A stretch of DNA of 64,000 nucleotides from Thermoanaerobaculia bacterium (GTDB taxonomy: Bacteria; Acidobacteriota; Thermoanaerobaculia; Multivoradales; Multivoraceae), in assembly GCA_963664405.1 (NCBI GenBank), contig OY761158.1:5792001-5856000 (forward strand), given 5' to 3'. Below are positions 48,038 to 62,481 of this stretch, piece after piece. A model generated the notes under the pieces. That model did no database searches. It saw only the letters and a program-made list of their open reading frames with translations, and was not told the DNA's origin. Positions within the stretch are counted from its first letter, which is position 1; every line of letters begins with the position of its first letter. The translations under genes were made by a program, and so were the position numbers.

Positions 48038-50186
48038 TCATGGTTCACTCGACTGTCTCTGGAGCTGGGCATCTCTCTTTTCGATCGCTCGCGAAATGAT
48101 GAAGGCGCGGATTGCGCTCAGGGACTCCTCGTCCAGTGAGTCGCCGAAGCCGGGCATACCCAACTCCTGCTTCGTGCCATCGTGAACGATCTCGGAGAAT
48201 TTCTTGTGGGTGTCGAGCGTCATCATTCTGAGGTCGGGCGCCGCGGCGGCGATCACCATGGGCACGCCGAGGCCGCGATGGCAGTTGGCGCAGATCTGGT
48301 GGTAGAGCGCGTTCCCGCGATCCACAGTCTCGGCCGACGCTGTGAGTGTTGGCGGTTGCGGAATCTCGGTACTGCGCAGCGGCGGCTGCGGTAGCGTCTG
48401 CGCGCCGCCGAGCTTGAACACGATCAGCTTCCCAGGCGAGTCGTACTCGGCACCGCTGCCGGCGATCGCCGCGAGATACTGGATGCCATCGATCATGTAG
48501 GTGACAGGCGCTGCAGAGAACGAGCCGTACGCGTCGAATCGCCAGAGTAGCTCACCGCTGTCGGTGTTGTAAGCCGAGAGCTGCCCTTTCCCATCTCCCT
48601 GAAAGAGTAGGCCGGTCACCGTTGCCAGGACTCCGCCGTTGAACCCGGTGGGTAGCTCCAGCTTCCAGCGCGACTCTCCGGAAAGCGGGTCGAAGGCGAT
48701 CAAGAAGCCTCTGGTCTCGGGGCGCGGTGGGGCCTTCGCTTCCAGTGCGGAGCGATAGGGGCCCAATCCCAGGCCGAGACTTAGTCCGATCTTATTGATC
48801 TCGTACTTGCCGGTCGCGACAAAGGTCTCGTCGAGCGAGTAGAAATTCGCGTAGTCGTGGTAATAGAAATACATGATGCCGCTCGCTTCGTCGAACGACA
48901 TCGGCTCCCAGTTGTGGGCGCCCGCGTTTGCGGGGAGGATCCACTGCGGGTCGGTCTCGTACACAACGTCAGGGTTCTCCACCGGTCGTCCGGTCTCCAT
49001 GTCGACGTGGGTCGCCCAGGTGATGCCCTCGGTGTAGGGGTGGGCACGCAGGAGCTCGCCGTCGGTGCGATCGATGACGTAGAAGAAGCCGTTCTTCGGT
49101 GCCTGGAGGAGTACCTTGCGCTCTACTCCGTCGACGGTCATGTCCCCGAGAGCGATAGGCATGGCAGAGCTGTAGTCCCAGTTGTCGCCAGGCACGGTCT
49201 GGTAGTACCAGTTCATTCGGCCGCTCTCGACGTCGACCGAGACGATGGCGGTCAGAAACAGATCGTCGCCGCCACCGGGCGAGCGGATCTGGCGAGGCCA
49301 GGGAGCGCCGTTGCCGACGCCGATGTAGAGGCTTCCCAGCTCCTCGTCATAGACCAGCGAGCTCCACGCGGTCCCTCCTCCGCCGTACTTCCACCACTCT
49401 CCCCCCCCAGGTCTTGGCGGCGAGCTCCATCTCCGGGTGCTCGAAAGGCTTGGAGGGGTCCCCGGGTACCAGGTAGAAGCGCCATGCCACTTCTCCGCTG
49501 TCGGCATCGTAAGCGGTGACATAGCCGCGGCGGTGGCCGCTCTCGGAGCTGCCCTGGCCGATGAAGACCTTGCCCGCTGCGGCGCGAGGTGCACCGGTGA
49601 TGTTGAAGCGACCCAGCGCGGACGGGTGATAGGTGTCGACGTCCCAGACCTCCTCGCCGGTAGCGGCATCGACCGAGATCAAGCGGCCGTCGAAAGTGGC
49701 GACGTAGACCCTACCCTTGTAAACCGCGACGCCTCGATTCGCGGCCCCACCACAGCAGGCGTATTTGATGTACTCGCGGTCGGTCTTGGGGTCGTAAGTC
49801 CAGATCTCCGCCCCGGTGCCGGCATCGAGCGCGTAAATCACGCTCCAACCGTTGGTCACGTACATGACGCCGTCGACGATGAGGGGCGTGCTTTGCATTT
49901 TGTCTCGGCCATCGCCGATGGCCTTGAACCAGGCGACGCCGAGCTCCTGCAAGCCGTCTCGGCCGATCTGGGTCAGCGTGGAGAAGCGCTGCTCTTTGTA
50001 GGTTTGCCCGTAGGTCAGCCAACTGCCGGGCTCGTCCATGGCCGCGCGCTTGATGCGCTCGTCGTCGACTCGACCGGCAGGCGGCGACTCTGTCGGCTCG
50101 GTCGAGCGCCCGACGTCCACTTCTGAGCGCCCGCCGCAGCAAACGAGGGAGAGTGCAACCAGGGCTGTGACGGCTCTTGTCGTCAA
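48038..50186 (-). pseudogene. Quinohemoprotein alcohol dehydrogenase (type II PQQ-ADH with cytochrome c); +1 frameshift in the C8 run at 49401-49408
   Basis: N-part RFSTLTQI, ACCGGAANRG, ITGAP; C-part GGGGTAW, GNGAPW, WDY, QAPKNGFFY, CANCH heme motif; removing one G restores TWGGEWWK. Confidence 0.88.
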
Positions 50187-51515: not shown

Positions 51516-52586
51516 ATGCGCAGACGAATTCTGAGCTCGATCTTTGTCGTCGCCCTACTTGCTCTGACCGGAACAGCGGTCCTGGCCGCCGCGGCCGACG
51601 AGAGCTGGACGGTCTCTCGTAACGACTACGGCCATCCCGACCTCGAGGGCGTCTGGGCGAATAACAATGCAATCCCGATGGAGCGGCCCGCGGAGTGGGA
51701 GGGCAAAGACCGCCTGACCGAAGCCGAGCTCCAGGAGCTCGTCGAGGCGGCGAAGGAAGCCTCCAACCCCGGAGAGGATGCGCTCTTTGGCGACCAGTTG
51801 GTGCTCGCCGCCATCGCCAAGACGAAAGCCGAGAGCTACGATCCGGCGACCGGCAATTACAATCAGTTCTGGGTGGCCGAGCGCGACTTCTCGAACCGCA
51901 CATCTCTCGTCGTGGAGCCGCCGGACGGGAGGATCCCGCCGCTGACGGAGGCGGCGCGGCGCAAGATGTGCGCGCAGATCGAGTACGCGAGCGAGCACCC
52001 TGCCGACTCGTGGCTGGATCGGTCGCTGTCGGAGCGCTGTGTCAGCTTCGGCGTACCCTTCGTCGGAGCCGGCTACAACGGTTATTTCCAGATCTTTCAG
52101 AGCTTGGACCACGTCGTCATCGTGCAAGAGATGATCCACGACGCGCGCATCATTCCCCTCGTCGACAGGCCATCCCTCAGCGACGACATCCGCCTCTTAC
52201 ACGGCGATTCCCGGGGCCACTGGGACGGAGACACCCTGGTCGTGGAGACCAGGAATTACTCTCCCAAGAGCAGCTTCAGGGGCTCGTCGGAGAATCTACA
52301 ACTGACCGAGCGCTTCACTCGTCTCGGGCCTACGCACCTCGAGTGGGAGCTCACGATCAGCGATCCCAGCACTTGGACGGCTCCTTGGAGCATCTCGATA
52401 CCGCTCAAGGGTACCGACGAGGCGATCTTCGAGTACGCCTGTCACGAGGGCAACTACGGCATGTCCGGCATCTTGGCCGGCCATCGCGCGCACGAGGCCC
52501 AAGGGAAGGCTCCACAACAGGCCCCGCTCAACCTCCGCTACCAGACTCTCGGTTGTGAAGAGACGCCCTCCGCGGGCGCCGACTAG
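51516..52586 (+). CDS. Uncharacterised secreted protein, 'YEYACHEGNY' family (copy 3)
   Basis: GHPDLEGVW, RTSLVVEPPDGRIP, ERC, GDSRGHWDGDTLVVET, FEYACHEGNY; RBS AGGAGG. Confidence 0.85.
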   Translation: MRRRILSSIFVVALLALTGTAVLAAAADESWTVSRNDYGHPDLEGVWANNNAIPMERPAEWEGKDRLTEAELQELVEAAKEASNPGEDALFGDQLVLAAIAKTKAESYDPATGNYNQFWVAERDFSNRTSLVVEPPDGRIPPLTEAARRKMCAQIEYASEHPADSWLDRSLSERCVSFGVPFVGAGYNGYFQIFQSLDHVVIVQEMIHDARIIPLVDRPSLSDDIRLLHGDSRGHWDGDTLVVETRNYSPKSSFRGSSENLQLTERFTRLGPTHLEWELTISDPSTWTAPWSISIPLKGTDEAIFEYACHEGNYGMSGILAGHRAHEAQGKAPQQAPLNLRYQTLGCEETPSAGAD

Positions 52587-54265
52587 TTGGGAAGCGCGAA
52601 GACGAATAGGTTGTTGCCTGAGCTCGGGCGCAGCTCGGGTGTGAGCCCGGCGCCAAGCGCTGCCGATCTAGAGCCGGTCGAGGCGACGACATACTGGCGT
52701 CCGTTTACGGCATAGCTGATCGGAAAGCCGGTGACCGCCGAGCCCAGATTGATCTCCCACAGCACGTCGCCCGTTTCTTGGTCCAAGGCCTTGAAGCGTC
52801 CATTGGAATCGCCTACGAAAACGAGCCCACCACCGCTCGTAAAGAGCGACTGGGTAGCGGCTCGCTGCTCGTAGGTCCACTTCGTCTTTCCTGTTTTCAC
52901 CGAAACCGCGTAAACGGTCCCCAGCTGGTCGGTGCCGGGGGCGATCTCGTGCTCCGCGCGGAGCGCGTAGATGGCGAGTCGTTGTCCCTCGTTGGTAGCT
53001 GTCATGCGCGCGCAGGTGTTGCGAAGGGGGAAGTACATGGTGCCCGTCAGGGGGCTGTAGGCGCCGGCCTGCCAATCTTTACCTCCTATATAGGTCGGAC
53101 AGACGAGGACCTCCTGGCCCAGCTCGCTGAACACGACCTCCGCGTTCTCGGTCACCTCACCGGTAGCGCCGTCGATATCGCTGATCACGTTCTGCGGCAC
53201 GGTGGGGGTGGCCCACAGAAACTCCCCGGTCTCGCGGTCGAGGGTGTAGACCACCCCGGTCTTGCCGGGAATGCCGGTCACTACCTTGCGGACCTCACCC
53301 GGCACGAGGCGCGGATTGGTCCACCGGACTTCGCTCTGGTCGGGCTCGACCGCGGTGTCGACAAGGAGGCGCTCGAAGGGGTGGTCCAGATCCCAGTGGT
53401 CGACGAGATGTTGGTAGTACCACGCGATCTCGCCGGTGCCGGCCTCGAGCGCGAGCGTCGAGTTGTGGTAGAGGTGCTTGTGGTCTGAGCCCCCCAGCAG
53501 GAACTTGGGTGCCGGCGAAGTCACACTCGTTCCGATGTAGATGAGGTCCAGGCCCGGCTCGCCCGGCGCCGGAATCGTGCGCCGTCGCCAAAGCTCCTTG
53601 CCGGTCATCGCGTCGTGGGCGGTAATGACACACGCATCAGGTCCGCCGCGATCCGAACAGGAGCGCCCTGAGATCACCTTGCCGTTGGCGATGATGGGCC
53701 CGGAGCTTTGGAGGACGGGCAGCTTCTTGTAATCGACGATCTCGGTTTCCCAGGCGAGCGCCCCGGTGGTCGCATCGAGGGCGAAGACGTAGGCGTCGGC
53801 GCTGGTGTCGATGATCAGATGGCCGTAGATCGCGATATTCCGGTTGTTTTCAGCCAGCCCACGGCCGGTGCCGTCCGGAAGCTCCCGGCGATACTCCCAG
53901 ACGAGGTCACCGGTGACCGCGTCGATCGCCTGGATCACATCCTTCGGGTTCGGCATATAGAGGACGCCGTCGTAGACCAGCGGCGTGCCCTGTTGGCGAC
54001 CCTCGTTCATGCCCCGCGACCAGACCAGTTGCAGGTCCTTCACGTTGTCGCGGGTAATCTCGTCGAGGGGGCTGTAGCCCCAACCGTCGAGGGTGCGACG
54101 CCACATCAGCCAGTCGTCATCGCTGGGGCTCTGCAGCATCGCGTCGGTGACCGGGACGAATTCGTCCACTGAGTTGCGTCGGGCGGTGATGGGAGCTGAG
54201 GCGGCTGTGGCGACGGCTATTGAGATCAGAAAGACATGGGGGGCCGTAAAATACCGACTCGTCAT
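52583..54265 (-). CDS. PQQ-dependent alcohol dehydrogenase-like beta-propeller with apparent internal in-frame deletion
   Basis: WLMWRRT..GWGYSPL, TPLVYDG, GKTG, GFPISYAVNGRQY; PAPGEPG joined directly to LDLIYIGTS. Confidence 0.8.
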   Translation of the reverse strand: MTSRYFTAPHVFLISIAVATAASAPITARRNSVDEFVPVTDAMLQSPSDDDWLMWRRTLDGWGYSPLDEITRDNVKDLQLVWSRGMNEGRQQGTPLVYDGVLYMPNPKDVIQAIDAVTGDLVWEYRRELPDGTGRGLAENNRNIAIYGHLIIDTSADAYVFALDATTGALAWETEIVDYKKLPVLQSSGPIIANGKVISGRSCSDRGGPDACVITAHDAMTGKELWRRRTIPAPGEPGLDLIYIGTSVTSPAPKFLLGGSDHKHLYHNSTLALEAGTGEIAWYYQHLVDHWDLDHPFERLLVDTAVEPDQSEVRWTNPRLVPGEVRKVVTGIPGKTGVVYTLDRETGEFLWATPTVPQNVISDIDGATGEVTENAEVVFSELGQEVLVCPTYIGGKDWQAGAYSPLTGTMYFPLRNTCARMTATNEGQRLAIYALRAEHEIAPGTDQLGTVYAVSVKTGKTKWTYEQRAATQSLFTSGGGLVFVGDSNGRFKALDQETGDVLWEINLGSAVTGFPISYAVNGRQYVVASTGSRSAALGAGLTPELRPSSGNNLFVFALPN

Positions 54266-54301
54266 TCGAGGCTCCTTCGCGGAAGGTGCGGGAAGGTGCG
54301 A

Positions 54302-55456
54302 TTATGCACGAACGGAGGGGCCAGTGCTCCCGTCCGATGTATCTCCGTCACGCGGGATCTTCCGCCTCTCTGATCGTGCCTCGGCGAGCAATCGTTTCGC
54401 CCGAATCTCTTCTCCCTCGGGATTCGACCGTTCTGCCTGCCGCAGATACTCCAGGGCCTTATCGGGCTGCCCTTTGATCAGCCAGATCGTGCCCAGGAGG
54501 CCCCATGCGTACTCGCCGAAGAGTCGGCGGTCATAGCCGAGATCGCGCGGCCGATCGGGATCGCCTCGATCGATCAGATCCTCGAGGTATCGGCAGGCTA
54601 TATCCCAACGGCTTTCAGCGACTCTTTGGCGAGCCGCCCACCAAAGGATCAGGGGATCGCTAGGGTGCCGTTCCAGGGCCTCGTCGACCAACGCGGCGGC
54701 GTCCATCAGCTCGGTGTCGTCGGAGAAGTGCAGGGCGAGCAGGTCAGAGTAGGCGAGCGCGTCACCGGGTGATGGCTCGCCGGCTCGCACCACTGCTAGA
54801 CCTTGTCGAAAGGCGATCTCTGCCGCCGCGGCGTCGCCCAGTGCCAGCTCCGCTTCACCCAGGGCATGCCACAGATAAGGTCGCTCGGGGTCGCTCTTGA
54901 TGGCTTTTCTCAGCAGAGGAAGGTTACGAACGTGCTTCGCGGTGAGATCTCCCTCATAGCCGAGGTGCTCGATGAATATCGGCGCGTCGATGATGCGAGC
55001 GGATTCTTCGCGCACGATTCGGTGAACATCTGGGAGCACCGTCTCGTGGATTGCTCCCCTGAAGCGCAGGTCGGCGCGATTTCTGAACAGGCGATATTCG
55101 AGATAGGGAGTCAGGCCGCTTGCGGCTCGAAATCCGACCCGCGCCGCGACGATGCCGGGATCCTCGAGGGCTTGCCTCAGATCTCCTTGAAGATCGATTC
55201 GCTCGTCGGCGTCAATGTAGAGAATCCACTCTGTGCCCGCGGCGTCGAGACCCGTGTTTCGAGCCTGAGAGAAGTCGTCACGCCAAGGCTGTTGGAGCAC
55301 TGTGGCCCCGAACGAACGGCAGATCTCTACGCTCGAGTCCTGGGAGCCGGTGTCGACGACTACGACTTCATCGACGATGTCTTGCAGAGCACCGAGGCAG
55401 GCAGGGAGGTGTCGGGCCTCGTCGCGGACGATCAGTGCAGCAGCGATCCCGGCCAA
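54302..55456 (-). CDS. GT2 glycosyltransferase with TPR region (SunS/flagellin-GT-like architecture)
   Basis: LIVRDEA..L..CL, VVVDTGS, W.DDFS.ARN, IDADE, IHE, HLGY, then TPR-like helices. Confidence 0.88.
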   Translation of the reverse strand: MAGIAAALIVRDEARHLPACLGALQDIVDEVVVVDTGSQDSSVEICRSFGATVLQQPWRDDFSQARNTGLDAAGTEWILYIDADERIDLQGDLRQALEDPGIVAARVGFRAASGLTPYLEYRLFRNRADLRFRGAIHETVLPDVHRIVREESARIIDAPIFIEHLGYEGDLTAKHVRNLPLLRKAIKSDPERPYLWHALGEAELALGDAAAAEIAFRQGLAVVRAGEPSPGDALAYSDLLALHFSDDTELMDAAALVDEALERHPSDPLILWWAARQRVAESRWDIACRYLEDLIDRGDPDRPRDLGYDRRLFGEYAWGLLGTIWLIKGQPDKALEYLRQAERSNPEGEEIRAKRLLAEARSERRKIPRDGDTSDGSTGPSVRA

Positions 55457-55463
55457 GGCGGCT

Positions 55464-55631
55464 CTACGCTGGGATCGAAGAATTCGACTGCGCCGCGGCA
55501 GGGCGGCTCATCAGACCCGCCATCGTGAAGCTTGCGACGACAGGAGCTACGAAGCTTGTCGATGCGGCCTTACGAATGAAGTCACGGCGCGATTCGTCGA
55601 ACTCTTTGAGGATCTCGTCGTTCTTTGGCAT
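55464..55631 (-). CDS. 55-aa peptide, candidate RiPP precursor: MPKNDEILKEFDESRRDFIRKAASTSFVAPVVASFTMAGLMSRPAAAQSNSSIPA
   Basis: Manually translated (below the track's 60-aa cutoff); GGAG upstream; fills the gap between the kinase-like and GT2 genes on the same strand. Confidence 0.8.
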   Translation of the reverse strand: MPKNDEILKEFDESRRDFIRKAASTSFVAPVVASFTMAGLMSRPAAAQSNSSIPA

Positions 55632-55670
55632 CAGCTGAGCTCCGGGTTGCAGGTTCTCGATGGAACTATT

Positions 55671-56540
55671 CTAGCGCAAGAAGGTGTCCTGTTCCCAGGC
55701 CTTCAGGATGGGACTGTAGCTCTCGTGGGCGACCTCTTCGAGGTGAGCGACCCCGTCCTTGGGCTCTCCGAGCTTCAACCTGTGGCCTCCGTACCGGCTC
55801 AGACGGGTCGCTGCCGCGACCAGCGTCGACGGGGACTGAACCCAACCCAGCGAGCTTTCGACCAGGCTCCGGAGCGTTTCGAAGATCGGAAGGCGCTGAC
55901 TCTCGGTCGCGCCATCATGATTGGCTTCGAGGACGATGACTCCGTCTATGGGATGCGGAGAGATGACCCACTCGAAGCCGGCTTCACCCGGGTCGAAACC
56001 CACGACTCTTTGACCGACTGTCGAAGCGATGGGCTGGTCCGCCAACAAGGGGGCGATTTCCGGGACCAGGCTTTCGATACCTGTCTTGAGATGCAGTCGG
56101 CGGGGTACAGCCAAGACCTGGCTGTCGCGCTCGAGCACCATCTCATCGCCCTCGATGGTGTAGCCGCTGTAGAGGAGGGCCGTAGCCAGTGTCGTTTTGC
56201 CTACTCCCTTCTCTCCTAACAGCAAGAGTCTTGCGCCGCGGATGTTGACGAGGGCGCCGTGGAACACCGACCACCCGGCGAGCGAGTATCGCTCGAGCAC
56301 GCGGCTGTGAAGTCGGAGGTAGATCGTCCACAAGACATCGTCGACCTGGTGTAGGACATCGACGAGATCGCCGTCCTCCCGCACCAGCCAAGGCCCTTCG
56401 CCTTCGACTTGATAGCGCATCACCTTCCGAACTTCGACATCCTGCCGCGCGCTCGTCGGCAAGTAGTTGAGGCGCTCGGCCAGGTTCGGGTCGTCGACCT
56501 CCAGCTCGACCCGCACACTGAGGAGTTGAAAGGAGGTCAC
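55671..56540 (-). CDS. HPr kinase-related P-loop kinase
   Basis: FHGALV....RLLLLGEKGVGKTTL...L...GY....DE; start overlaps the PqqD stop. Confidence 0.82.
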   Translation of the reverse strand: MTSFQLLSVRVELEVDDPNLAERLNYLPTSARQDVEVRKVMRYQVEGEGPWLVREDGDLVDVLHQVDDVLWTIYLRLHSRVLERYSLAGWSVFHGALVNIRGARLLLLGEKGVGKTTLATALLYSGYTIEGDEMVLERDSQVLAVPRRLHLKTGIESLVPEIAPLLADQPIASTVGQRVVGFDPGEAGFEWVISPHPIDGVIVLEANHDGATESQRLPIFETLRSLVESSLGWVQSPSTLVAAATRLSRYGGHRLKLGEPKDGVAHLEEVAHESYSPILKAWEQDTFLR

Positions 56541-56839
56541 TCGCTGCCGGTGTCGATCTGTCGCACCACACCCTCGCGTAACAGCAGATCCAGGCCGTCT
56601 TCGAGGGTGCTGAGTGGCGAAGCGTCAAGGGAGAATAGCTCGGTGACGATTCGGCCCATCTCCTCGAGACTGCGAGAACCGTCGCAGAGCTCGAAGAGAA
56701 CCGCTGCTGTCGCATTCAAGTGATGAATGCGATCGGTCCGGGGGTCGAAGACCACCATCCCCTCCTCGGCCTCGTGAGCCTCGAGACCGGGGATTCGCTC
56801 GAATGTTCTGGCGTCACTCAATTTGCGAGAGGCTATCAT
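56537..56839 (-). CDS. PqqD family protein (RiPP recognition element)
   Basis: MVVFDP.TD.IHHLNATAAVLFELCDGSRS.EE....L..L...G.V. Confidence 0.9.
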   Translation of the reverse strand: MIASRKLSDARTFERIPGLEAHEAEEGMVVFDPRTDRIHHLNATAAVLFELCDGSRSLEEMGRIVTELFSLDASPLSTLEDGLDLLLREGVVRQIDTGSE

Positions 56840-58103
56840 CGAGATCGGAGCCGTGAGGCCAGTGCGCTCCGGGTCCAGTCGGCGATTGAGCGAGAGACTT
56901 GCTCTACTTGGTAGCGCTCCTCGACTGCTCTTCGAGCGTTGCGAACGAGCCGGGCCGAGAGCTCCGGGTCTTTCAGAACACGAACCGCTGCCTGGGCCAG
57001 ATCGTCGTTCGAAGAGGCGAGCAGGAGATCGGTGTCGTTGCGCAGATCCAGGCCAGCGGCGGCTAATGGCGTCGCCACCACCGGCACTGCATTCGCAGCC
57101 GCCTCCAGGATCTTGAGGCGGCTTCCACCGCCAGCACGGAGGGGCACGACAGCTACGTCGGCTTGCCGGTACTGTGGGCTGAGATCGTTCACGGCTCCGG
57201 TCGACTGGACCCCAGGCAAGCGAGAAAGCTGGTCCAGAGCTTCCTTTCGTCCGCCCCCGACGAGCGTCAGGTCCGCGCTTGCAATTCGCTCCCTAGTGCG
57301 CGGCAGAATCTCGCACGCGAGCCGCTGCGCCGCGTCGAGGTTCGGGAGGTAGCCGAAGTTGCCGACGTAGAGCAGTCGTTTACCGCCGACGCTTCTAGCC
57401 TCTCTGGGCGGGCATCGAACTGCGTTCGGCAATACCGCGACCTTCTCGATGAGGCAAGACCGTGCCAGTGATCTGGAGTCGGATTCGGCTGCTGCCGCAA
57501 CACCGTCGAAGAGTGGCGAGCAGACCGCGCCGAAGCGGCGAAAACTCTCTGCTTCAGCTAGACACTTGAACGACGAGGTGTGCTCATTGCGAAGTTGGTG
57601 GAGGGCGGCGATCGACTCCAGGGTGGCGACGTCGTCTTCGTCCGCGTCGAGCAGCAGGCAGGGTCGCGATTCAGACTCTGCGAAGGGTAGAGCGGCCCCA
57701 GCCATATACAGGCGCAAGATCACGACGACATCGAAGCTCTCCTCAAAAACATGCTGCGAAGCCGGTGGCCGAGAGCCGGCGATGCTTGCCTGGCCCTTTC
57801 TGGCAGTGCCCGAGAGGCTCTTACGATGCTTCGACCGAGTCCGCTCTGCAACCAGCCGACCGCGGACTCATGCGGCCCAAGAAGCGGTACGACTTCGACG
57901 CGGTCGCAGTGCTGTGAAGCCCACTCCGAATTACCGATCTCGGCTTCCGGGTCAGACACAGGTAGCACGGCGACGCTCAGCGCTCCGACTTGCGCGAGTC
58001 CCTCCACCGCGAGGGCGGCCCGCATCGCCAGGCCATTGCCCGTTGGCGACGGGATGATCGGCGAGATCAGCAGAAGGCGGGTGGCCCCCGATGCTAAGCT
58101 CAA
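56836..58103 (-). pseudogene. GT4 glycosyltransferase; frameshift at the A5 run 57745-57749
   Basis: N-part LLLISPIIP.P.GNG..MR; C-part LLYVGNFGY.PN.DA, VVPLRAGGGSRLKILEA...VPVVAT; one extra T joins the frames; start uncertain. Confidence 0.8.
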
Positions 58104-58114
58104 CGCGCTCTCCG

Positions 58115-58974
58115 ATGCCCGGTATCCCCCGCATTGCGCACTTTGTTTTCGGGCTGCGTCAGCAGCACGAGCCCTTTCATCCGCTCCACTTTTTGGCATT
58201 GGAGACCTGTCGCCGGGTGCTTCAGCCCGATGCCATCTACCTCCACTACCATTGGCTTCCTTTCGGGGCGCTGTGGGACACCATCCGGCCGCATCTCACC
58301 CTGGTGCGTGTTGATCGGGTCGAGGCTGTCGACCGCGCAACCTACGACGATCGGCTGGTGCCGGAAGAATACCGTTATGCGCACCACGCAGACTTTTTGC
58401 GCCTCGATGCTCTGATCGAGCACGGAGGTATTTACGCCGATATCGATACGCTTTTTTTGCGACCGCTTCCCGAGTCGCTGTGGCGCCAGCCCTTCGTGAT
58501 CGGCCGCGAGCCTGACGTGGTCGATGAGCACACCGGCGAAAGGCGTGCGTCACTCTGCAATGCGCTTCTGATGTCGAGGCCGCCGCCGACTTCGCTCGAG
58601 CCTGGCGAGAGGAGATGGCGTCGGAGCTGGATGGCTCTTGGAGCAACCACTCTGGATTTCTCGCCCAGCGCTTGAGCGAGGAGCGGCCGCAGTCTGTCCA
58701 CGTAGAGCCGGAGGAGTCGTTCTTTCCTGTGCCCTCGACGCCCGCGGGACTGGCCTCGCTGTTCTCCGTAGAGCCGCTCTCCATAGGGTCCAGCTACTCC
58801 ATCCACCTCTGGGAGCACTTGTGGTGGCGGCACGAGCGGACGGACTTTTCTCAGCACCACGGTGATGAGATCACCTTCGCTTTCCTGCGCCGGTCGACGA
58901 CGGCGCTGGCTCGTTTGGCGAGGCCTTGCTTGCCCGAGCTCGACGTCGACGACTTGATCCGGCGCACCCCGTGA
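58115..58974 (+). pseudogene. GT32-like DXD glycosyltransferase (Gly_transf_sug); -1 frameshift near 58582
   Basis: IPRIAHFVFG, AHHADFLRL..L..HGGIYADID, CNA; continues W..HS...HLWE in the next frame. Confidence 0.8.
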
Positions 58975-61403
58975 GCTCGGCGGGACGAGGAATCCGCTGG
59001 GTGTCCCTGATGCCCGGTTGTGGGTACGGTGATGCGGCAGCGCTATACCTCTCTGGTCTCGACCGGCTCGGAGTTCCCATCAGCTGGACACCGATCTCAC
59101 GCGGGCTCGAGACTGTCGGCGCGAGAGATCGCCTGCCGGGATCGAGCCCTGTTGTCGACGAACGCATGGTGGATCTGTGGCAGAAGCCGATAGTGGCGGA
59201 CACTCTAGTGATCGACGTTCCTCCCCCGAAGCTCCACAAGCACTGGCTTGCGAAATACCCCGATCTGACGCCCTACGCATACGTAGCCTGGGAGATGGAC
59301 CGGCTCCCTCGCGGATGGGCCCGGGTTCTCAATCGCTTCGAGAGCATCTTTGTTCCGTCGGAGTTCAACCGCAGCGTGATGAGAGAGTGTGGGATCGATC
59401 GCCCGATCGACGTCATCCCGCACATCGCCCGACGGGTCGAGCCGGTGGCGACACCGAGACTGCTCAGCACTCTCGCCGATGATGACTTCGTCTTCTACAC
59501 GATTGGAACGTGGACCGATCGCAAGGCGATGGCGGAAACAGTACGGGCTTACCTGGAGACGTTTCGTGGCGACGAGCGTGTCGTTCTGGTGGTCAAGACC
59601 GATTCGGTCGACAGGACTCAGCGGAGTGGATCGAGTGTCTGGCGGCGTAACAGCTCTGCGTCTCGGTCGAGGATGGTCTGGTGGACGCTGGCGCGGCTCC
59701 TGGCCGAGTATCCGGGGGCCGGCAGAGTGCATCTCGTCGCGGGGGAAGTGAGCCCTCGCACCATCGACGGGATCCACAGCCGAGGCGATTGCTTTTTGTC
59801 CCTCACCCGCAGCGAAGGGTGGGGCCTGGGTCCTTTCGAGGCCCTGCTGTTCGGCAATCCGGCAATTGTGACGGGTTGGGGCGGGCAGATGGACTACCTG
59901 GGTTCGGACTATCCTCTCGCGCTTCGCTATCAGCTCGAGGATGCGCCGGCCGACGAGTACGATCGAGGAGTCCCTGCGCCGCGTTGGGCGCGAGCCGATC
60001 GCGGGCACGCCGGCGAGCTGCTGCGATGGGTCTTCGAGCATCGAGCCGAGGCTCGAGCTGATGCTGACTCCCTGCGCCGGTCGCTGTCGACGACCTATTC
60101 GGCCGATGCCGTCTGTCGGGAGCTCGCTCGGGGACTGGGCTTTCCGACAGGGACACTCACCGATGGCAACCCGCCAATCTCGTGGGATCGATACCAACCC
60201 GTCTCTGTCGACGCTGCTGTCGATGACTTGATGGATGCCTGCAGTAAGTATCTCGCGGGCGAAAGGGCCAAGGTGACCCGCGTTTGGAAAGGCGATCCAA
60301 AGCGCATCGCCGAGTTGGCGTCGGCTCATCGCCTACAGCCCTTGTTGAGCTCGCTGGTGCGGAGCGGGCGGCTGGAGCAGAATCTCCCACAGGATCTGCT
60401 CGACGACTGGTTCGGCGCCTACTGTTTGACGGCGTTGCGAAACGGCCGCTTGTTGCAGGTGCTTGGCGAGCTCACCGCGCGCTGCCACGCCGCGGGTCTT
60501 CGACCCCTCGCCCTGAAGGGGCCGGTAGACATCGCTCGCGGCTACCGCGACCCGGGGCTTCGTCCCATGGTCGATCTCGATATTCTCTGCCGGGCCCTCG
60601 AAGTGGAGCCCGTGCTCGGTCATTGCTACGATCTCGGGTTTCGCTACAAACGTCAGACAACTCCCTTTCATGTCGAGCTTTGCCATCCCGACAACGACGC
60701 CACAGTAGAAGTCCATTTCGACCTCTGGGAAGAGGTCGCGAATCGAGAGCGTTTTCTCGAGGAGCTGTGGCGCGACGCCGAAAGTTGCGAGGTCGCCGGT
60801 GTTTGTTTCGAGGCCCCATCGGCCGCGTGCTCCCTAGTTCTCGGCGTCGCGCACCTTGTGCATCACGACTTCCTGATCGGCATGAAGCCCATCCTCGATT
60901 TCGCCCTCCTGCTCACCAAGAGCCCTGCAACGGATGGAGACCGTGTCCTCTCCATGGCTAGACTCGGTGATCTCCACAAAGAGTTAGGCAGTCTCAGTAG
61001 GGCGCTCATTCGGGACCTCGCCTGGAGCTCCACAGAGCCGCCCTGGCTCGAGTCGGGCTTGATCGCCGGCGAAGAGGGCCTCGACCGGACCCTTGCCATC
61101 CAACTCCTTGCTCACTGGCGCCGGCTGCCCGAGTGGGCTGGCCCCGGCGCCTTCGACGAGATCGCGACCCGGCCCGGTCTCGTCGGCAAGCTCGGCTTCG
61201 CGCGCCGTGTACTTTTACCGCCACCAAGAGAGTTCCGACTTGCTTCGAGAGAGAGAGGTGCCGCGGGCGCTCGTCTCAAGCACGTCGCGGCGGCGGTGGC
61301 GGCTGTGGTAGACGCAGCGTTGCATCGCAGCTGGCGCGCGCGTAGGCGGGGCGGCTCACTGAAGCGCGAGCTTCATCATCGCCGGGCCGCCAGGCGAGAG
61401 TGA
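58971..61403 (+). CDS. Fusion of GT4 glycosyltransferase and NTP_transf_5-like nucleotidyltransferase
   Basis: GYG, WE.DRLP, PSEFN, RSEGWGL..FEA; C-half LKGP.....Y.DPGLRPMVDLDIL, VEVH; GTGA overlap with upstream gene. Confidence 0.85.
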   Translation: MSSAGRGIRWVSLMPGCGYGDAAALYLSGLDRLGVPISWTPISRGLETVGARDRLPGSSPVVDERMVDLWQKPIVADTLVIDVPPPKLHKHWLAKYPDLTPYAYVAWEMDRLPRGWARVLNRFESIFVPSEFNRSVMRECGIDRPIDVIPHIARRVEPVATPRLLSTLADDDFVFYTIGTWTDRKAMAETVRAYLETFRGDERVVLVVKTDSVDRTQRSGSSVWRRNSSASRSRMVWWTLARLLAEYPGAGRVHLVAGEVSPRTIDGIHSRGDCFLSLTRSEGWGLGPFEALLFGNPAIVTGWGGQMDYLGSDYPLALRYQLEDAPADEYDRGVPAPRWARADRGHAGELLRWVFEHRAEARADADSLRRSLSTTYSADAVCRELARGLGFPTGTLTDGNPPISWDRYQPVSVDAAVDDLMDACSKYLAGERAKVTRVWKGDPKRIAELASAHRLQPLLSSLVRSGRLEQNLPQDLLDDWFGAYCLTALRNGRLLQVLGELTARCHAAGLRPLALKGPVDIARGYRDPGLRPMVDLDILCRALEVEPVLGHCYDLGFRYKRQTTPFHVELCHPDNDATVEVHFDLWEEVANRERFLEELWRDAESCEVAGVCFEAPSAACSLVLGVAHLVHHDFLIGMKPILDFALLLTKSPATDGDRVLSMARLGDLHKELGSLSRALIRDLAWSSTEPPWLESGLIAGEEGLDRTLAIQLLAHWRRLPEWAGPGAFDEIATRPGLVGKLGFARRVLLPPPREFRLASRERGAAGARLKHVAAAVAAVVDAALHRSWRARRRGGSLKRELHHRRAARRE

Positions 61404-61410
61404 CAGATCG

Positions 61411-62481
61411 CTACCGGCCCGAGTCAGGAGTGGCTCGCACTTGATTCTCTTCGAAACGGGCGCCACGCAGAGTGTTGCCCATAGAGTAGTTTCCTTCGTG
61501 GCATGCGTACTCGTACATCTTGTCTGGAGTCGCCGGCCAGCTGTATTCGCCGCTGTAGGGCGTCTCGTAGTCGCCGTTTTCGAGCGTGAACTGGTACAAC
61601 AGCGTGTCCTCGTCGGTGAGGGTCAAGCGCTCGACGACGCGCTGATCGCGAGGTGGGGAGGGCTCGCCGAAGAGAGTGGTGGCCAGCCACTCTTCTTCGA
61701 GAAAGTTTGTGGTTTCGACGACCAAAGTGTCGCCCTCCCACCAGCCGATCGAGTCTCCGCCTCGCGAAAGCAGCCCCGGCGGTCTGTGCTCGGGCTTGGC
61801 CGATGGAGTGCCCAAGCGAATGATCCGCGCCTCGTGCATCCACTCGACCAGGATCATGACGTAGCTCTCCGTTTGCATGATGGTCTTGATGTTGTTGTAG
61901 TTCTTGGGCAGCACCGGGATCGTCGCCTCTAGCGAAAAGATGCAGCGATCGGCGATCGACAGCGACTCGGGCCCGTCATAAGGGCCGACTTCGCGGTCGA
62001 GCCACCAAGCCGTACCGGTGTTTTTCTTGGAGAAGGGATAGAGACCGCCTCTGCGCTCTCGGCCCCTCTCGGTGAGTGGCGGAAAGCGACCGTTGGGTGG
62101 ATCGGTGATGAGAGAGGTCCGGAACCTGCCATCTACGGCAACGGCCTGGGTGCCTCGGTCCATGTAGAAGTCGTTGTAGGCGCCTATGCTGCCACCAGCG
62201 GGGGGTGCCTGGCGATTCGGATCGCTGGCTTTCGCACGCTGCGCGCTCCTGGTGGCTGCGCTCTGCTGGATCTCCTCAGCCTCGGCTGGCGTCAGGAAGA
62301 GTCGATTCCCGTACTCGGGAAGCCTCTGCATCGGTGTCAGGGTGCCGATGTCGTAATTTCCCGAGAGGTTGGGTCTGCCCTGGAGCGTTCTCGGGATGTC
62401 GCCTGCCGATGCAATCTCGAGCGGGCAGATTACGAACATGAATACGAAACCAAGTAGCCAGCGAGTTGCGCTGTCGTTCAT
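61411..62481 (-). CDS. Uncharacterised secreted protein, 'YEYACHEGNY' family (copy 4)
   Basis: GRPNLSGNY, RTSLITDPPNGRFP, DRC, GDSIGWWEGDTLVVETTNF, YEYACHEGNY. Confidence 0.85.
   Translation of the reverse strand: MNDSATRWLLGFVFMFVICPLEIASAGDIPRTLQGRPNLSGNYDIGTLTPMQRLPEYGNRLFLTPAEAEEIQQSAATRSAQRAKASDPNRQAPPAGGSIGAYNDFYMDRGTQAVAVDGRFRTSLITDPPNGRFPPLTERGRERRGGLYPFSKKNTGTAWWLDREVGPYDGPESLSIADRCIFSLEATIPVLPKNYNNIKTIMQTESYVMILVEWMHEARIIRLGTPSAKPEHRPPGLLSRGGDSIGWWEGDTLVVETTNFLEEEWLATTLFGEPSPPRDQRVVERLTLTDEDTLLYQFTLENGDYETPYSGEYSWPATPDKMYEYACHEGNYSMGNTLRGARFEENQVRATPDSGR

Follow-up and report, generated by a model that had tools for sequence, protein, structure and literature searches.

A 64,000-nt stretch of contig OY761158.1 (positions 5,792,001 to 5,856,000) from the genome of a Thermoanaerobaculia bacterium, hereafter the window, harbours at 54302 to 61403 a gene cluster in which a 55-amino acid (aa) peptide is encoded together with a PqqD-fold recognition element (RRE) of the kind serving peptides that are made on the ribosome and modified after translation (RiPPs), an HPr-kinase-like P-loop kinase, a nucleotidyltransferase domain of the NTP_transf_5 family and several glycosyltransferases (GTs). 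This cluster is real, conserved and uncharacterised, and it represents a variant of the phospho-glyco-peptide pathways of the LPP (linear polyphosphorylated peptide) and paeninodin types. Its distinguishing features are a leader resembling the signals of the twin-arginine translocation (Tat) pathway, an adjacent GT2-family enzyme carrying tetratricopeptide repeats (GT2-TPR), a built-in set of further GTs and the lack of a dedicated peptidase or exporter in the loci scanned. It probably constitutes a conserved, lasso-free, RRE-guided phospho-/glyco-peptide system that would export its product through Tat.

Gene content and conservation of the cluster

The source genome consists of one contig of 6.78 Mb (~63% G+C, 97% complete). 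The cluster comprises the following features, with scores from searches with hidden Markov models (HMMs).

54302..55456, minus strand: GT2-TPR glycosyltransferase of 384 aa with a D-A-D motif (PF00535, Glycos_transf_2, 57.6 bits, plus TPR families)
55464-55631, minus strand: 55-aa precursor peptide, translation MPKNDEILKEFDESRRDFIRKAASTSFVAPVVASFTMAGLMSRPAAAQSNSSIPA
55671-56540, minus strand: HPr-kinase-like P-loop kinase of 289 aa with Walker A GEKGVGKTT (Hpr_kinase_C 27.6 bits, cut-off 33.3)
56537-56839, minus strand: PqqD-fold RRE of 100 aa (PF05402 33.0 bits, cut-off 23.4)
56836-57723, minus strand: open reading frame (ORF) of the C-terminal part of a GT4 (Glyco_trans_1_4 82.5 bits), with same-frame homology up to 57759
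57720-58199, minus strand: N-terminal part of the GT4 in another frame, with homology at 58079-57738 by tblastn against the homologous loci L017 and L020
58115-58582 and 58591-58974, plus strand: GT32-type glycosyltransferase in two frames (PF04488, Gly_transf_sug, 36.7 bits at 58091-58675; D-I-D motif)
58926-61403, plus strand: GT4-like/NTP_transf_5 fusion of 825 aa (PF14907 128.2 bits)

The five minus-strand units (54302-58199) are separated by 7-39 nt or overlap by 4 nt. Overlaps of 4 nt join the GT4 to PqqD and PqqD to the kinase, and the gaps measure 39 nt between kinase and peptide and 7 nt between peptide and GT2-TPR. The GT32 and the GT4-like/NTP_transf_5 fusion diverge from these genes. 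In the fusion, a GT4-like half (residues ~20-415), on which GT4 families score just below their own cut-offs, precedes the NTP_transf_5 domain (residues 457-688) with its V-D-L-D-I-L motif; no solved relative of the fusion was found by sequence at E≤0.01. The gene set and order given in a preliminary description of the stretch are confirmed, ORFs and domain calls included. For the GT4 and the GT32, the domain identity stands, whereas the single frames assumed there do not, each gene lying in two frames with a 1-nt shift. A promoter and terminator scan of 53800-61800 returned no promoter-like and one terminator-like site, with more in shuffled sequences; in a GC-rich host such a scan is uninformative.

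The same gene set is found in other organisms. A genome scan with a kinase alignment (A2, 5 rows) gave 87 pattern matches, among which three loci in proteobacterial metagenome-assembled genomes (MAGs) contain the whole set in the same order, with a peptide between kinase and GT2-TPR that is 50-58% identical to the window peptide. Metagenome contigs were scanned with a peptide alignment (A5), and 14 loci were confirmed out of 292 pattern matches. Ten of them (L020-L028 and L030) are true relatives. The other four encode exported proteins of an ordinary kind that resemble the peptides in the N-terminal signal only, namely a DctP-type binding protein, a molybdopterin oxidoreductase, a high-potential iron-sulfur protein (HiPIP) and a protein without known family. 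In a sample of 401 genomes of the same phylum, the source genome included, four have a kinase match at E≤1e-10; the strongest of these genomes (G009) again shows PqqD, kinase, peptide and GT2-TPR, and none of the nine same-family genomes of the sample has a kinase match. The conserved small peptide that the preliminary description proposed to look for in homologous loci was thus found in 14 further loci, of which ten are on metagenome contigs, three in proteobacterial MAGs and one in a genome of the same phylum, giving 15 peptides in total.

The three MAG loci, L020-L024, L026, L028 and G009 all repeat the order GT4-PqqD-kinase-peptide-GT2/TPR, from which GT32 and GT4 diverge. Because the whole order recurs in other organisms, the arrangement is, judging from these comparisons, not due to chance. 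In 14 of the 15 loci the next gene downstream of the peptide gene encodes the GT2-TPR, the remaining one (L025) being not assessable since its contig stops ~195 nt past the peptide. PqqD is encoded upstream in 13/15 loci (L021 begins within the kinase gene; none was seen in L025), and the kinase between PqqD and peptide in 12/15 (L027 and L030 are without it; none was seen in L025). Among nine loci with several kb of flank, seven include NTP_transf_5, detected by tblastn only in L024 and not seen in L030 and L039.

The kinase-less loci L027 and L030 retain RRE, peptide and GT2-TPR. For this reason, these comparisons indicate that the invariant core is composed of the RRE, the peptide and the peptide-type GT, and that the kinase and NTP_transf_5 form a frequent accompanying module. 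In L027 (501-3506), a 468-aa glycosyltransferase-PqqD fusion with PqqD at its C-terminus is followed by a 93-aa peptide and then by GT2-TPR; at its C-terminus this peptide has a sorting tail of the exosortase type that resembles IPTL-CTERM (20.2 bits, cut-off 20.5). The GT4-like and NTP_transf_5 halves are separate genes in L017-L020 and L023 and apparently fused in L024, as in the window. Two proteobacterial MAG clusters also encode GT10-family fucosyltransferases (L017:4142-5143 and L018:5002-6018) that the window lacks, and the L017 cluster has one additional GT32.

The precursor peptide and its predicted partners

The peptide gene occurs in a single copy in the source genome, with GGAG 9-12 nt upstream of its ATG. 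As homologous peptides occupy the same position in other loci, comparative evidence indicates that the 55-aa ORF is a real gene; the window peptide shares 50-61% identity with the peptides of the same position in L017-L024. Its elements are a twin arginine (R15-R16), the sequence F-V-A-P-V-V (27-32), A-A-A (45-47) and the tail QSNSSIPA. Around the twin arginine it reads S-R-R-D-F-I-R-K, followed by 20 uncharged residues and then by A-A-A. This twin-arginine-like leader is a feature that the preliminary description had not mentioned. The Tat consensus associates S/T-R-R-x-F-L-K with a moderately hydrophobic h-region and an Ala-x-Ala site. In the family, 14/15 peptides have RR and L026 has KR; the residues after RR agree with the consensus, being F/A/L, then aliphatic, then K/R. 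The Ala-x-Ala triplet, judged by eye, is found in 14/15 peptides.

Within the uncharged stretch lies a docking-type motif, [F/Y]-[V/I]-x-P-x-V, in which the Pro is present in all 15 peptides, the Val two residues after it in 14 and the F/Y three residues before it in 13. It matches [Y/W]xxPx[L/V/I/F/A], the motif reported to be recognised by the discrete RREs of lasso peptides and LPPs (PMC13381572). Directly after it, A-S-F-S/T-M-x-G-L is near-invariant in an alignment (A7) of 13 of the 15 peptides, L022 being omitted as a near-duplicate of L019 and L039 having been found later. The tail after Ala-x-Ala measures 5-8 residues in 8/15 peptides; the other seven have longer tails, with a Pro-rich or His/Asn-rich extension or a C-terminal hydrophobic, Arg-rich segment. 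Twelve of the tails include N-x-S/T (all but L025, L030 and L039), the Ser of which is the last residue in three peptides, and L039 terminates in H-G-S, so that four of the 15 peptides end in Ser. N-x-S/T might be an N-glycosylation sequon, although three of the 15 peptides are without the Asn and O/S-transferases are the closest GT relatives.

The RRE assignment is consistent with its predicted fold. The model (predicted local distance difference test, pLDDT, 89.6) adopts a winged-helix RRE fold with a three-stranded sheet, and its top Foldseek matches are almost exclusively RREs, namely PqqD, TbiB1, TfuB1, PbtF-RRE and heterocyclase RREs. Against the PDB, the RRE profile best matches TfuB1 (E 1.6e-4), with 9x8z_B at E 0.35 and 9x90_B at E 0.57, which are LppB and PbaB1, respectively (PMC13381572). 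Binding of the peptide by the RRE, a check proposed in the preliminary description, gains weak support from complex prediction: the modelled pair scores 0.53 against 0.00 for the best control, with a partner pLDDT of at least 64 and at least 96% of contacts agreeing between runs. In calibration, 18 of 157 solved complexes passed at ≤0.60, as did the only two mismatched pairs (of 215) that passed at all, and a pass in this range turns out wrong more often than right unless the guess is already likely.

The kinase model (AlphaFold2, pLDDT 95.2) matches PEP carboxykinases and HprK/P in Foldseek, as expected for the PEP-carboxykinase/HprK fold. A profile of nine close homologs retrieved 4970 sequences at E≤1e-3 and 170 at E≤1e-30 from 1.84 billion cluster representatives. 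After fragments and fusions were dropped, 101 full-length-looking sequences of the 150 matches listed were aligned with the window kinase (n=102). TIGR04352 matches 89 of these 102 kinases with a best E of 2.5e-18, far under its cut-off; by this profile evidence, the window kinase and its homologs therefore form a sister family of the HprK-related kinases that is not yet curated. Fusions with a GT4, GT2, mannosyltransferase or methyltransferase domain account for five longer representatives of the family. Of the HMM assignments put forward in the preliminary description, PF05402 and PF14907 exceed their cut-offs, whereas in the TIGR04352/TIGR04353 set the kinase obtains 26.1 bits (cut-off 200) and the RRE 21.1 bits (cut-off 35).

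The best solved relatives of the GT2-TPR by sequence are GmaR (73.4 bits), the flagellin O-GlcNAc transferase, and SunS (60.7 bits). As both are protein or peptide glycosyltransferases, the GT2-TPR is a sequence-based candidate for the enzyme glycosylating the peptide directly. Its earlier designation as SunS-type is borne out insofar as the SunS family TIGR04195 is its best NCBIfam match (70.7 bits), whereas the cut-off of 350 is not reached. The conserved peptide, the lack of a lasso B2 protein and these relatives of the GT2-TPR support the linear phospho/glyco-peptide pathway first suggested for the cluster.

Two other places in the source genome encode PqqD-like domains. In a second locus (G000:C1:1545200-1554400; L015:5210-14343), genes for a JmjC protein and an HprK-related kinase (78.1 bits against TIGR04352, cut-off 200) accompany a 97-aa PqqD and a 192-aa protein whose Tat-like leader reads R-A-R-R-K-L-L-K (15.2 bits against TIGR01409, cut-off 16.7); a PMT_2-type GT-C is also present, as is an NTP_transf_5 gene into which an IS21-type element (IstA/IstB) has inserted, splitting it. 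The third PqqD-like domain (G000:C1:6121259-6122581) stands at the start of a ~440-aa frame, followed, as judged by eye from the translation, by helical repeats and an apparent S-adenosylmethionine (SAM)-methyltransferase motif. Around the cluster itself, two 356-aa proteins (61411-62481, minus strand; 51516-52586, plus strand) flank the region; they have signal-like N-termini and no Pfam or NCBIfam match, and tblastn finds well over 50 paralogous places genome-wide, a very large family expansion. Further out, a gene resembling those of pyrroloquinoline quinone (PQQ)-dependent dehydrogenases (48038-50186, minus strand) seemingly consists of two overlapping ORFs of 543 and 279 aa, judging from translations only, and would be a third possible frameshift inside 14 kb.

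Proposed pathway, export and rival explanations

From the gene set, its conservation, the motifs of the peptide and the folds of its partners, we infer the following enzymatic steps. The precursor would consist of a long leader, with a twin-arginine n-region, [F/Y]xxPxV within a hydrophobic stretch and Ala-x-Ala, and of a core of 5-20 residues containing N/H-x-Ser/Thr. The PqqD-fold RRE would bind the [F/Y]xxPxV docking motif and offer the tail to the enzymes. The HPr-kinase-like kinase may then phosphorylate a tail Ser, by analogy with PadeK, PsmK and LppK, and the NTP_transf_5 domain may place a sugar on the phosphate, in line with the requirement for PsmN to obtain hexose on the phospho-Ser of pseudomycoidin. 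Besides, the GmaR/SunS-like GT2-TPR would O-glycosylate a tail Ser/Thr directly, and the GT4s and the GT32, plus the GT10 in some loci, would lengthen the glycan. Finally, the general Tat pathway would export the bulky cytoplasmic product and the housekeeping signal peptidase would cleave after Ala-x-Ala. The link between RRE or kinase and glycosylation is suggested by the PqqD-GT fusion of L027, the kinase-GT fusions, the NTP_transf_5-GT4 fusions and the kinase-less loci that keep RRE and GT2-TPR.

The Tat step is inferred from sequence features, namely the conserved RR, the likeness of the leader to Tat-type protein signals, the exosortase-type tail of L027, which implies translocation, and the lack of a dedicated exporter. 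Indeed, the n-region of the peptides is indistinguishable from the Tat signals of HiPIP, molybdopterin oxidoreductase and DctP, ordinary Tat-type substrates that the peptide-pattern scan also caught. The window peptide combines the twin-arginine motif, an uncharged stretch and Ala-x-Ala, and TatC is encoded in the source genome. No ABC exporter or peptidase family was found among the ORFs scanned in the cluster and flanks of the window and in L017-L020, L023, L024 and L030; Tat export followed by cleavage by the housekeeping signal peptidase would explain why neither is encoded.

Several observations weigh against this reading. The Tat-signal model TIGR01409 (TAT_signal_seq) gives the window peptide 11.3 bits, under its cut-off of 16.7, and only 2 of the 13 aligned peptides match it at E≤1, while Pfam TAT_signal is not matched by the peptides. 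The hydrophobic stretch is far more conserved than a usual signal-peptide h-region, and docking or anchoring in the membrane could be its role instead. Among PDB chains it resembles only a transmembrane helix of PsaJ (E 0.31), the peptide profile (A7) reaching no leader peptide and otherwise only designed repeat proteins. Kinase and RRE stay far under their NCBIfam cut-offs, the RRE profile reaches LppB at E 0.35 only, and the support from the RRE-peptide complex prediction is weak. The Ser of 'AQS' is not conserved across peptides, and the GT4 and GT32 are frameshifted here, identically in contigs of three runs from two studies.

A further refinement, speculative and at present rather doubtful, is that the leader doubles as Tat signal while the RRE acts as a Tat 'proofreading' chaperone, masking the signal until a phospho-linked oligosaccharide on the 5-8-residue tail is finished in the cytoplasm, after which Tat export and release by the housekeeping signal peptidase would follow. 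If true, this would be a peptide-primed export of a cytoplasmically assembled glycan, without lipid carrier or dedicated transporter, and the first natural RiPP class using the Tat pathway.

A second question is whether the cluster still works in this strain. It is conceivable, although we tend to think otherwise, that it is a decaying remnant with broken GT4 and GT32 whose full product is no longer made. The frameshifts map against intact homologs: compared with the single ORFs of L017 and L020, the GT4 of the window has one base fewer near 57740-57750 and the GT32 misses one base between 58583 and 58590, its two pieces being 75% and 57% identical to the single L017 ORF. Across 55400-59400 no difference from the window, frameshifts included, is seen in contigs of the runs X1, X3 and X4, which represent three samples and two studies. 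The patchy distribution, with the kinase in none of the nine same-family genomes, points the same way, as does the second HprK/PqqD/NTP locus of the genome, which is interrupted by an IS21 element. On the other side, the remaining cluster genes are intact, and the two GT4 pieces overlap in a GTGA stop/start, through which two half-enzymes could be translated in a coupled manner. The identical contigs may stem from the material behind the window itself and may thus not be independent of it, whereas a near-identical 252-nt contig from a marine-sediment run (X8; depth 3 only) has an extra G after 57750 that places the GT4 pieces in one frame; this contig does not cover the GT32 frameshift site. 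The glycan part may therefore be impaired in this strain, or the GT halves may work as split enzymes. The listing of sequencing runs for the region contains no RNA run covering it.

The same enzymology might also operate without Tat. The RR and the hydrophobic segment would then act only as the leader used for docking, or would anchor the peptide, uncleaved and N-in, in the membrane, with the modified tail remaining membrane-bound or exiting by an unlinked route. We regard this as unlikely. The subthreshold Tat models fit such an anchor, as do the nearly invariant, transmembrane-helix-like P-V-V-A-S-F-S-M-x-G-L and the position of the docking motif within the would-be h-region. It accounts less well for RR in 14/15 peptides with F/L and K/R at the Tat-consensus positions, for the basic or Pro residue and Ala-x-Ala that come after the hydrophobic stretch, for the exosortase-type C-terminal sorting tail of one homolog, which requires translocation, and for the lack of any other exporter among the scanned ORFs.

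An ordinary surface-polysaccharide locus, in which the small protein, PqqD and the kinase would regulate or organise the GTs instead of acting as substrate, chaperone and modifier, is improbable. Several GTs are exopolysaccharide-like, such as the GT4 at 56836-57723 with 122 bits against TIGR03087 (a GT of the PEP-CTERM/XrtA system; cut-off 316, not reached), and LPP and paeninodin clusters are likewise reported in capsule loci (PMC13381572). However, no flippase, polymerase, chain-length regulator or initiating phosphotransferase was found among the scanned ORFs, nearly all fold matches of the 100-aa protein are peptide-binding RREs, and the GT2-TPR, nearest to protein and peptide glycosyltransferases, is always abutted by the peptide gene.

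The data fit least well the idea that these genes tailor a lasso peptide, with its protease and cyclase encoded elsewhere in the genome. Paeninodin-type lasso clusters typically contain HprK-like kinases and NTP_transf_5 proteins (PMC13381572, PMC6993621), and an Asn-synthase-like gene exists at 1.81 Mb, but PF13471 has no match in this 97% complete genome, none of the five Asn_synthase (PF00733) matches of the genome lies in the window or within 30 kb of any of the three PqqD matches, the tail QSNSSIPA lacks an acidic residue for a macrolactam, and the homologous loci scanned have no lasso genes. The earlier statement that no lasso cyclase, protease or radical SAM gene lies in the window holds in genome-wide searches. 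The refuting case named there, a lasso B2/C pair elsewhere that accounts for the genes, did not turn up: the genome has no lasso B2 match, and no cyclase-like gene was found near the cluster. Radical_SAM has 26 matches in the genome and none in the window, the nearest lying ~9 kb past the window end. PqqC has no match in the genome, nor in any control genome, so that this search is unvalidated. As separate observations, the Asn-synthase-like PP-loop protein (G000:C1:1812134-1814343; PF00733 44.7 bits) adjoins a radical SAM gene (37.1 bits) far from PqqD. Two radical SAM matches with identical scores (G000:C1:6768190-6768711 and 6775988-6776509) lie 7.8 kb apart near the contig end, and may represent a duplicated stretch or an assembly-closure overlap.

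Relation to known systems and significance

The preliminary description called the system undescribed. This needs qualification, since a linear, lasso-free family, the LPPs, was published in May 2026 for Bacillota; the present architecture differs from it and was not found described in full-text searches, the reach of which excludes ~1.7 million PubMed Central articles and all subscription journals. The LPP family (lppA-K-B-S-D-N of Paenibacillus alginolyticus; Popov et al., Nat Commun, May 2026, PMC13381572) combines an RRE, an HprK-like kinase and an NTP transferase, and is described in that report as 'restricted to the Bacillota'. There, LppK phosphorylates Ser3 of a linear core, a residue that becomes polyphosphorylated, the RRE presents the leader to the peptidase, and a signal-peptidase homolog cuts the leader (PMC13381572). 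Shared with the present cluster are the discrete RRE, the HprK-like kinase (recognised here by its fold and weak HMM matches) and the NTP transferase, a signal-peptidase-type leader-removal site, predicted here, and a location among glycan genes. A phosphorylated LPP fragment begins A-Q-S-N and 8 of the 15 present peptides read A-Q-S/T-N, a likeness that may be fortuitous, since conservation across the family does not extend to this Ser. As proof of which Ser is the acceptor, 'AQSN' was rejected, Pro or Val-Pro replacing the Ser in L021, L024, L027 and L039.

The differences are numerous. LPP clusters encode a SipW-like (SpI-like) peptidase and an MsbA-like exporter, whereas neither is present among the ORFs scanned here. 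Of the LPP leader motif YxxPxVLxHQxIxFETxxS, only the [F/Y]xxPxV part is retained, the rest being replaced by A-S-F-S/T-M-x-G-L. Moreover, the present leader has a twin-arginine motif and the core counts only 5-20 residues. The cluster also adds an always-adjacent GmaR/SunS-like GT2-TPR and 3-5 further GTs, and its hosts are Proteobacteria and the phylum of the window instead of Bacillota.

With paeninodin and pseudomycoidin, the cluster shares two enzyme families (PadeK/PsmK and PsmN), at the family level, as well as a Ser that is the likely acceptor and lies at the C-terminus or close to it. In pseudomycoidin, PsmK phosphorylates the last residue, a Ser, and a hexose on this phosphate requires PsmN (Zyubko et al. 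2019, PMC6993621), which provides a precedent for the role assigned to the NTP_transf_5 domain. In contrast, the macrolactam synthetase, B2 protease and ABC exporter of these lasso clusters are missing here. The GT2-TPR resembles SunS, ThuS and GmaR in having a GT2 domain followed by helical or TPR repeats, in enzymes that act directly on a peptide or protein. Glycocins nevertheless differ, as shown by the low TIGR04195 score and by the 55-aa peptide, which has neither Cys nor a helical-hairpin core. They have double-glycine leaders and dedicated exporters, and are not known to need an RRE.

The pairing of a PqqD-like chaperone with an HprK-related kinase recalls the HPr-rel-A system (TIGR04352/TIGR04353), in which a PqqD-family peptide chaperone is paired with such a kinase; neither protein of the window reaches the curated cut-offs, and no paper on that system was found. 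RRE surveys report RRE-glycosyltransferase fusions and precursors with Sec signals, and the parts available mention no kinase or Tat leader (PMC12710340, PMC7470986). Among these precursors, DUF2282 proteins carry Sec signal peptides and are paired with DUF2063 RREs (PMC12710340). The present peptides have in common with them a general export signal instead of a class-specific leader, the signal being of the twin-arginine and not of the Sec type. The chemistry of DUF2282 precursors, which involves MNIO enzymes, differs as well.

Until now, the tailoring pair of kinase and nucleotidyltransferase had been known in Bacillota only, for lasso peptides and, since 2026, for their linear LPP relatives as well. 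The cluster places the same module in Gram-negative lineages, where a defined and very short presumed acceptor peptide goes with it, together with a complete set of glycosyltransferases. This makes the cluster a compact system for asking what NTP_transf_5 does, how an RRE serves glycosyltransferases and whether Tat carries a cytoplasmically glycosylated peptide. For genome mining, it matters that such precursors resemble ordinary signal peptides, and the system would add a Tat-type general export signal to the repertoire of RiPP leaders.

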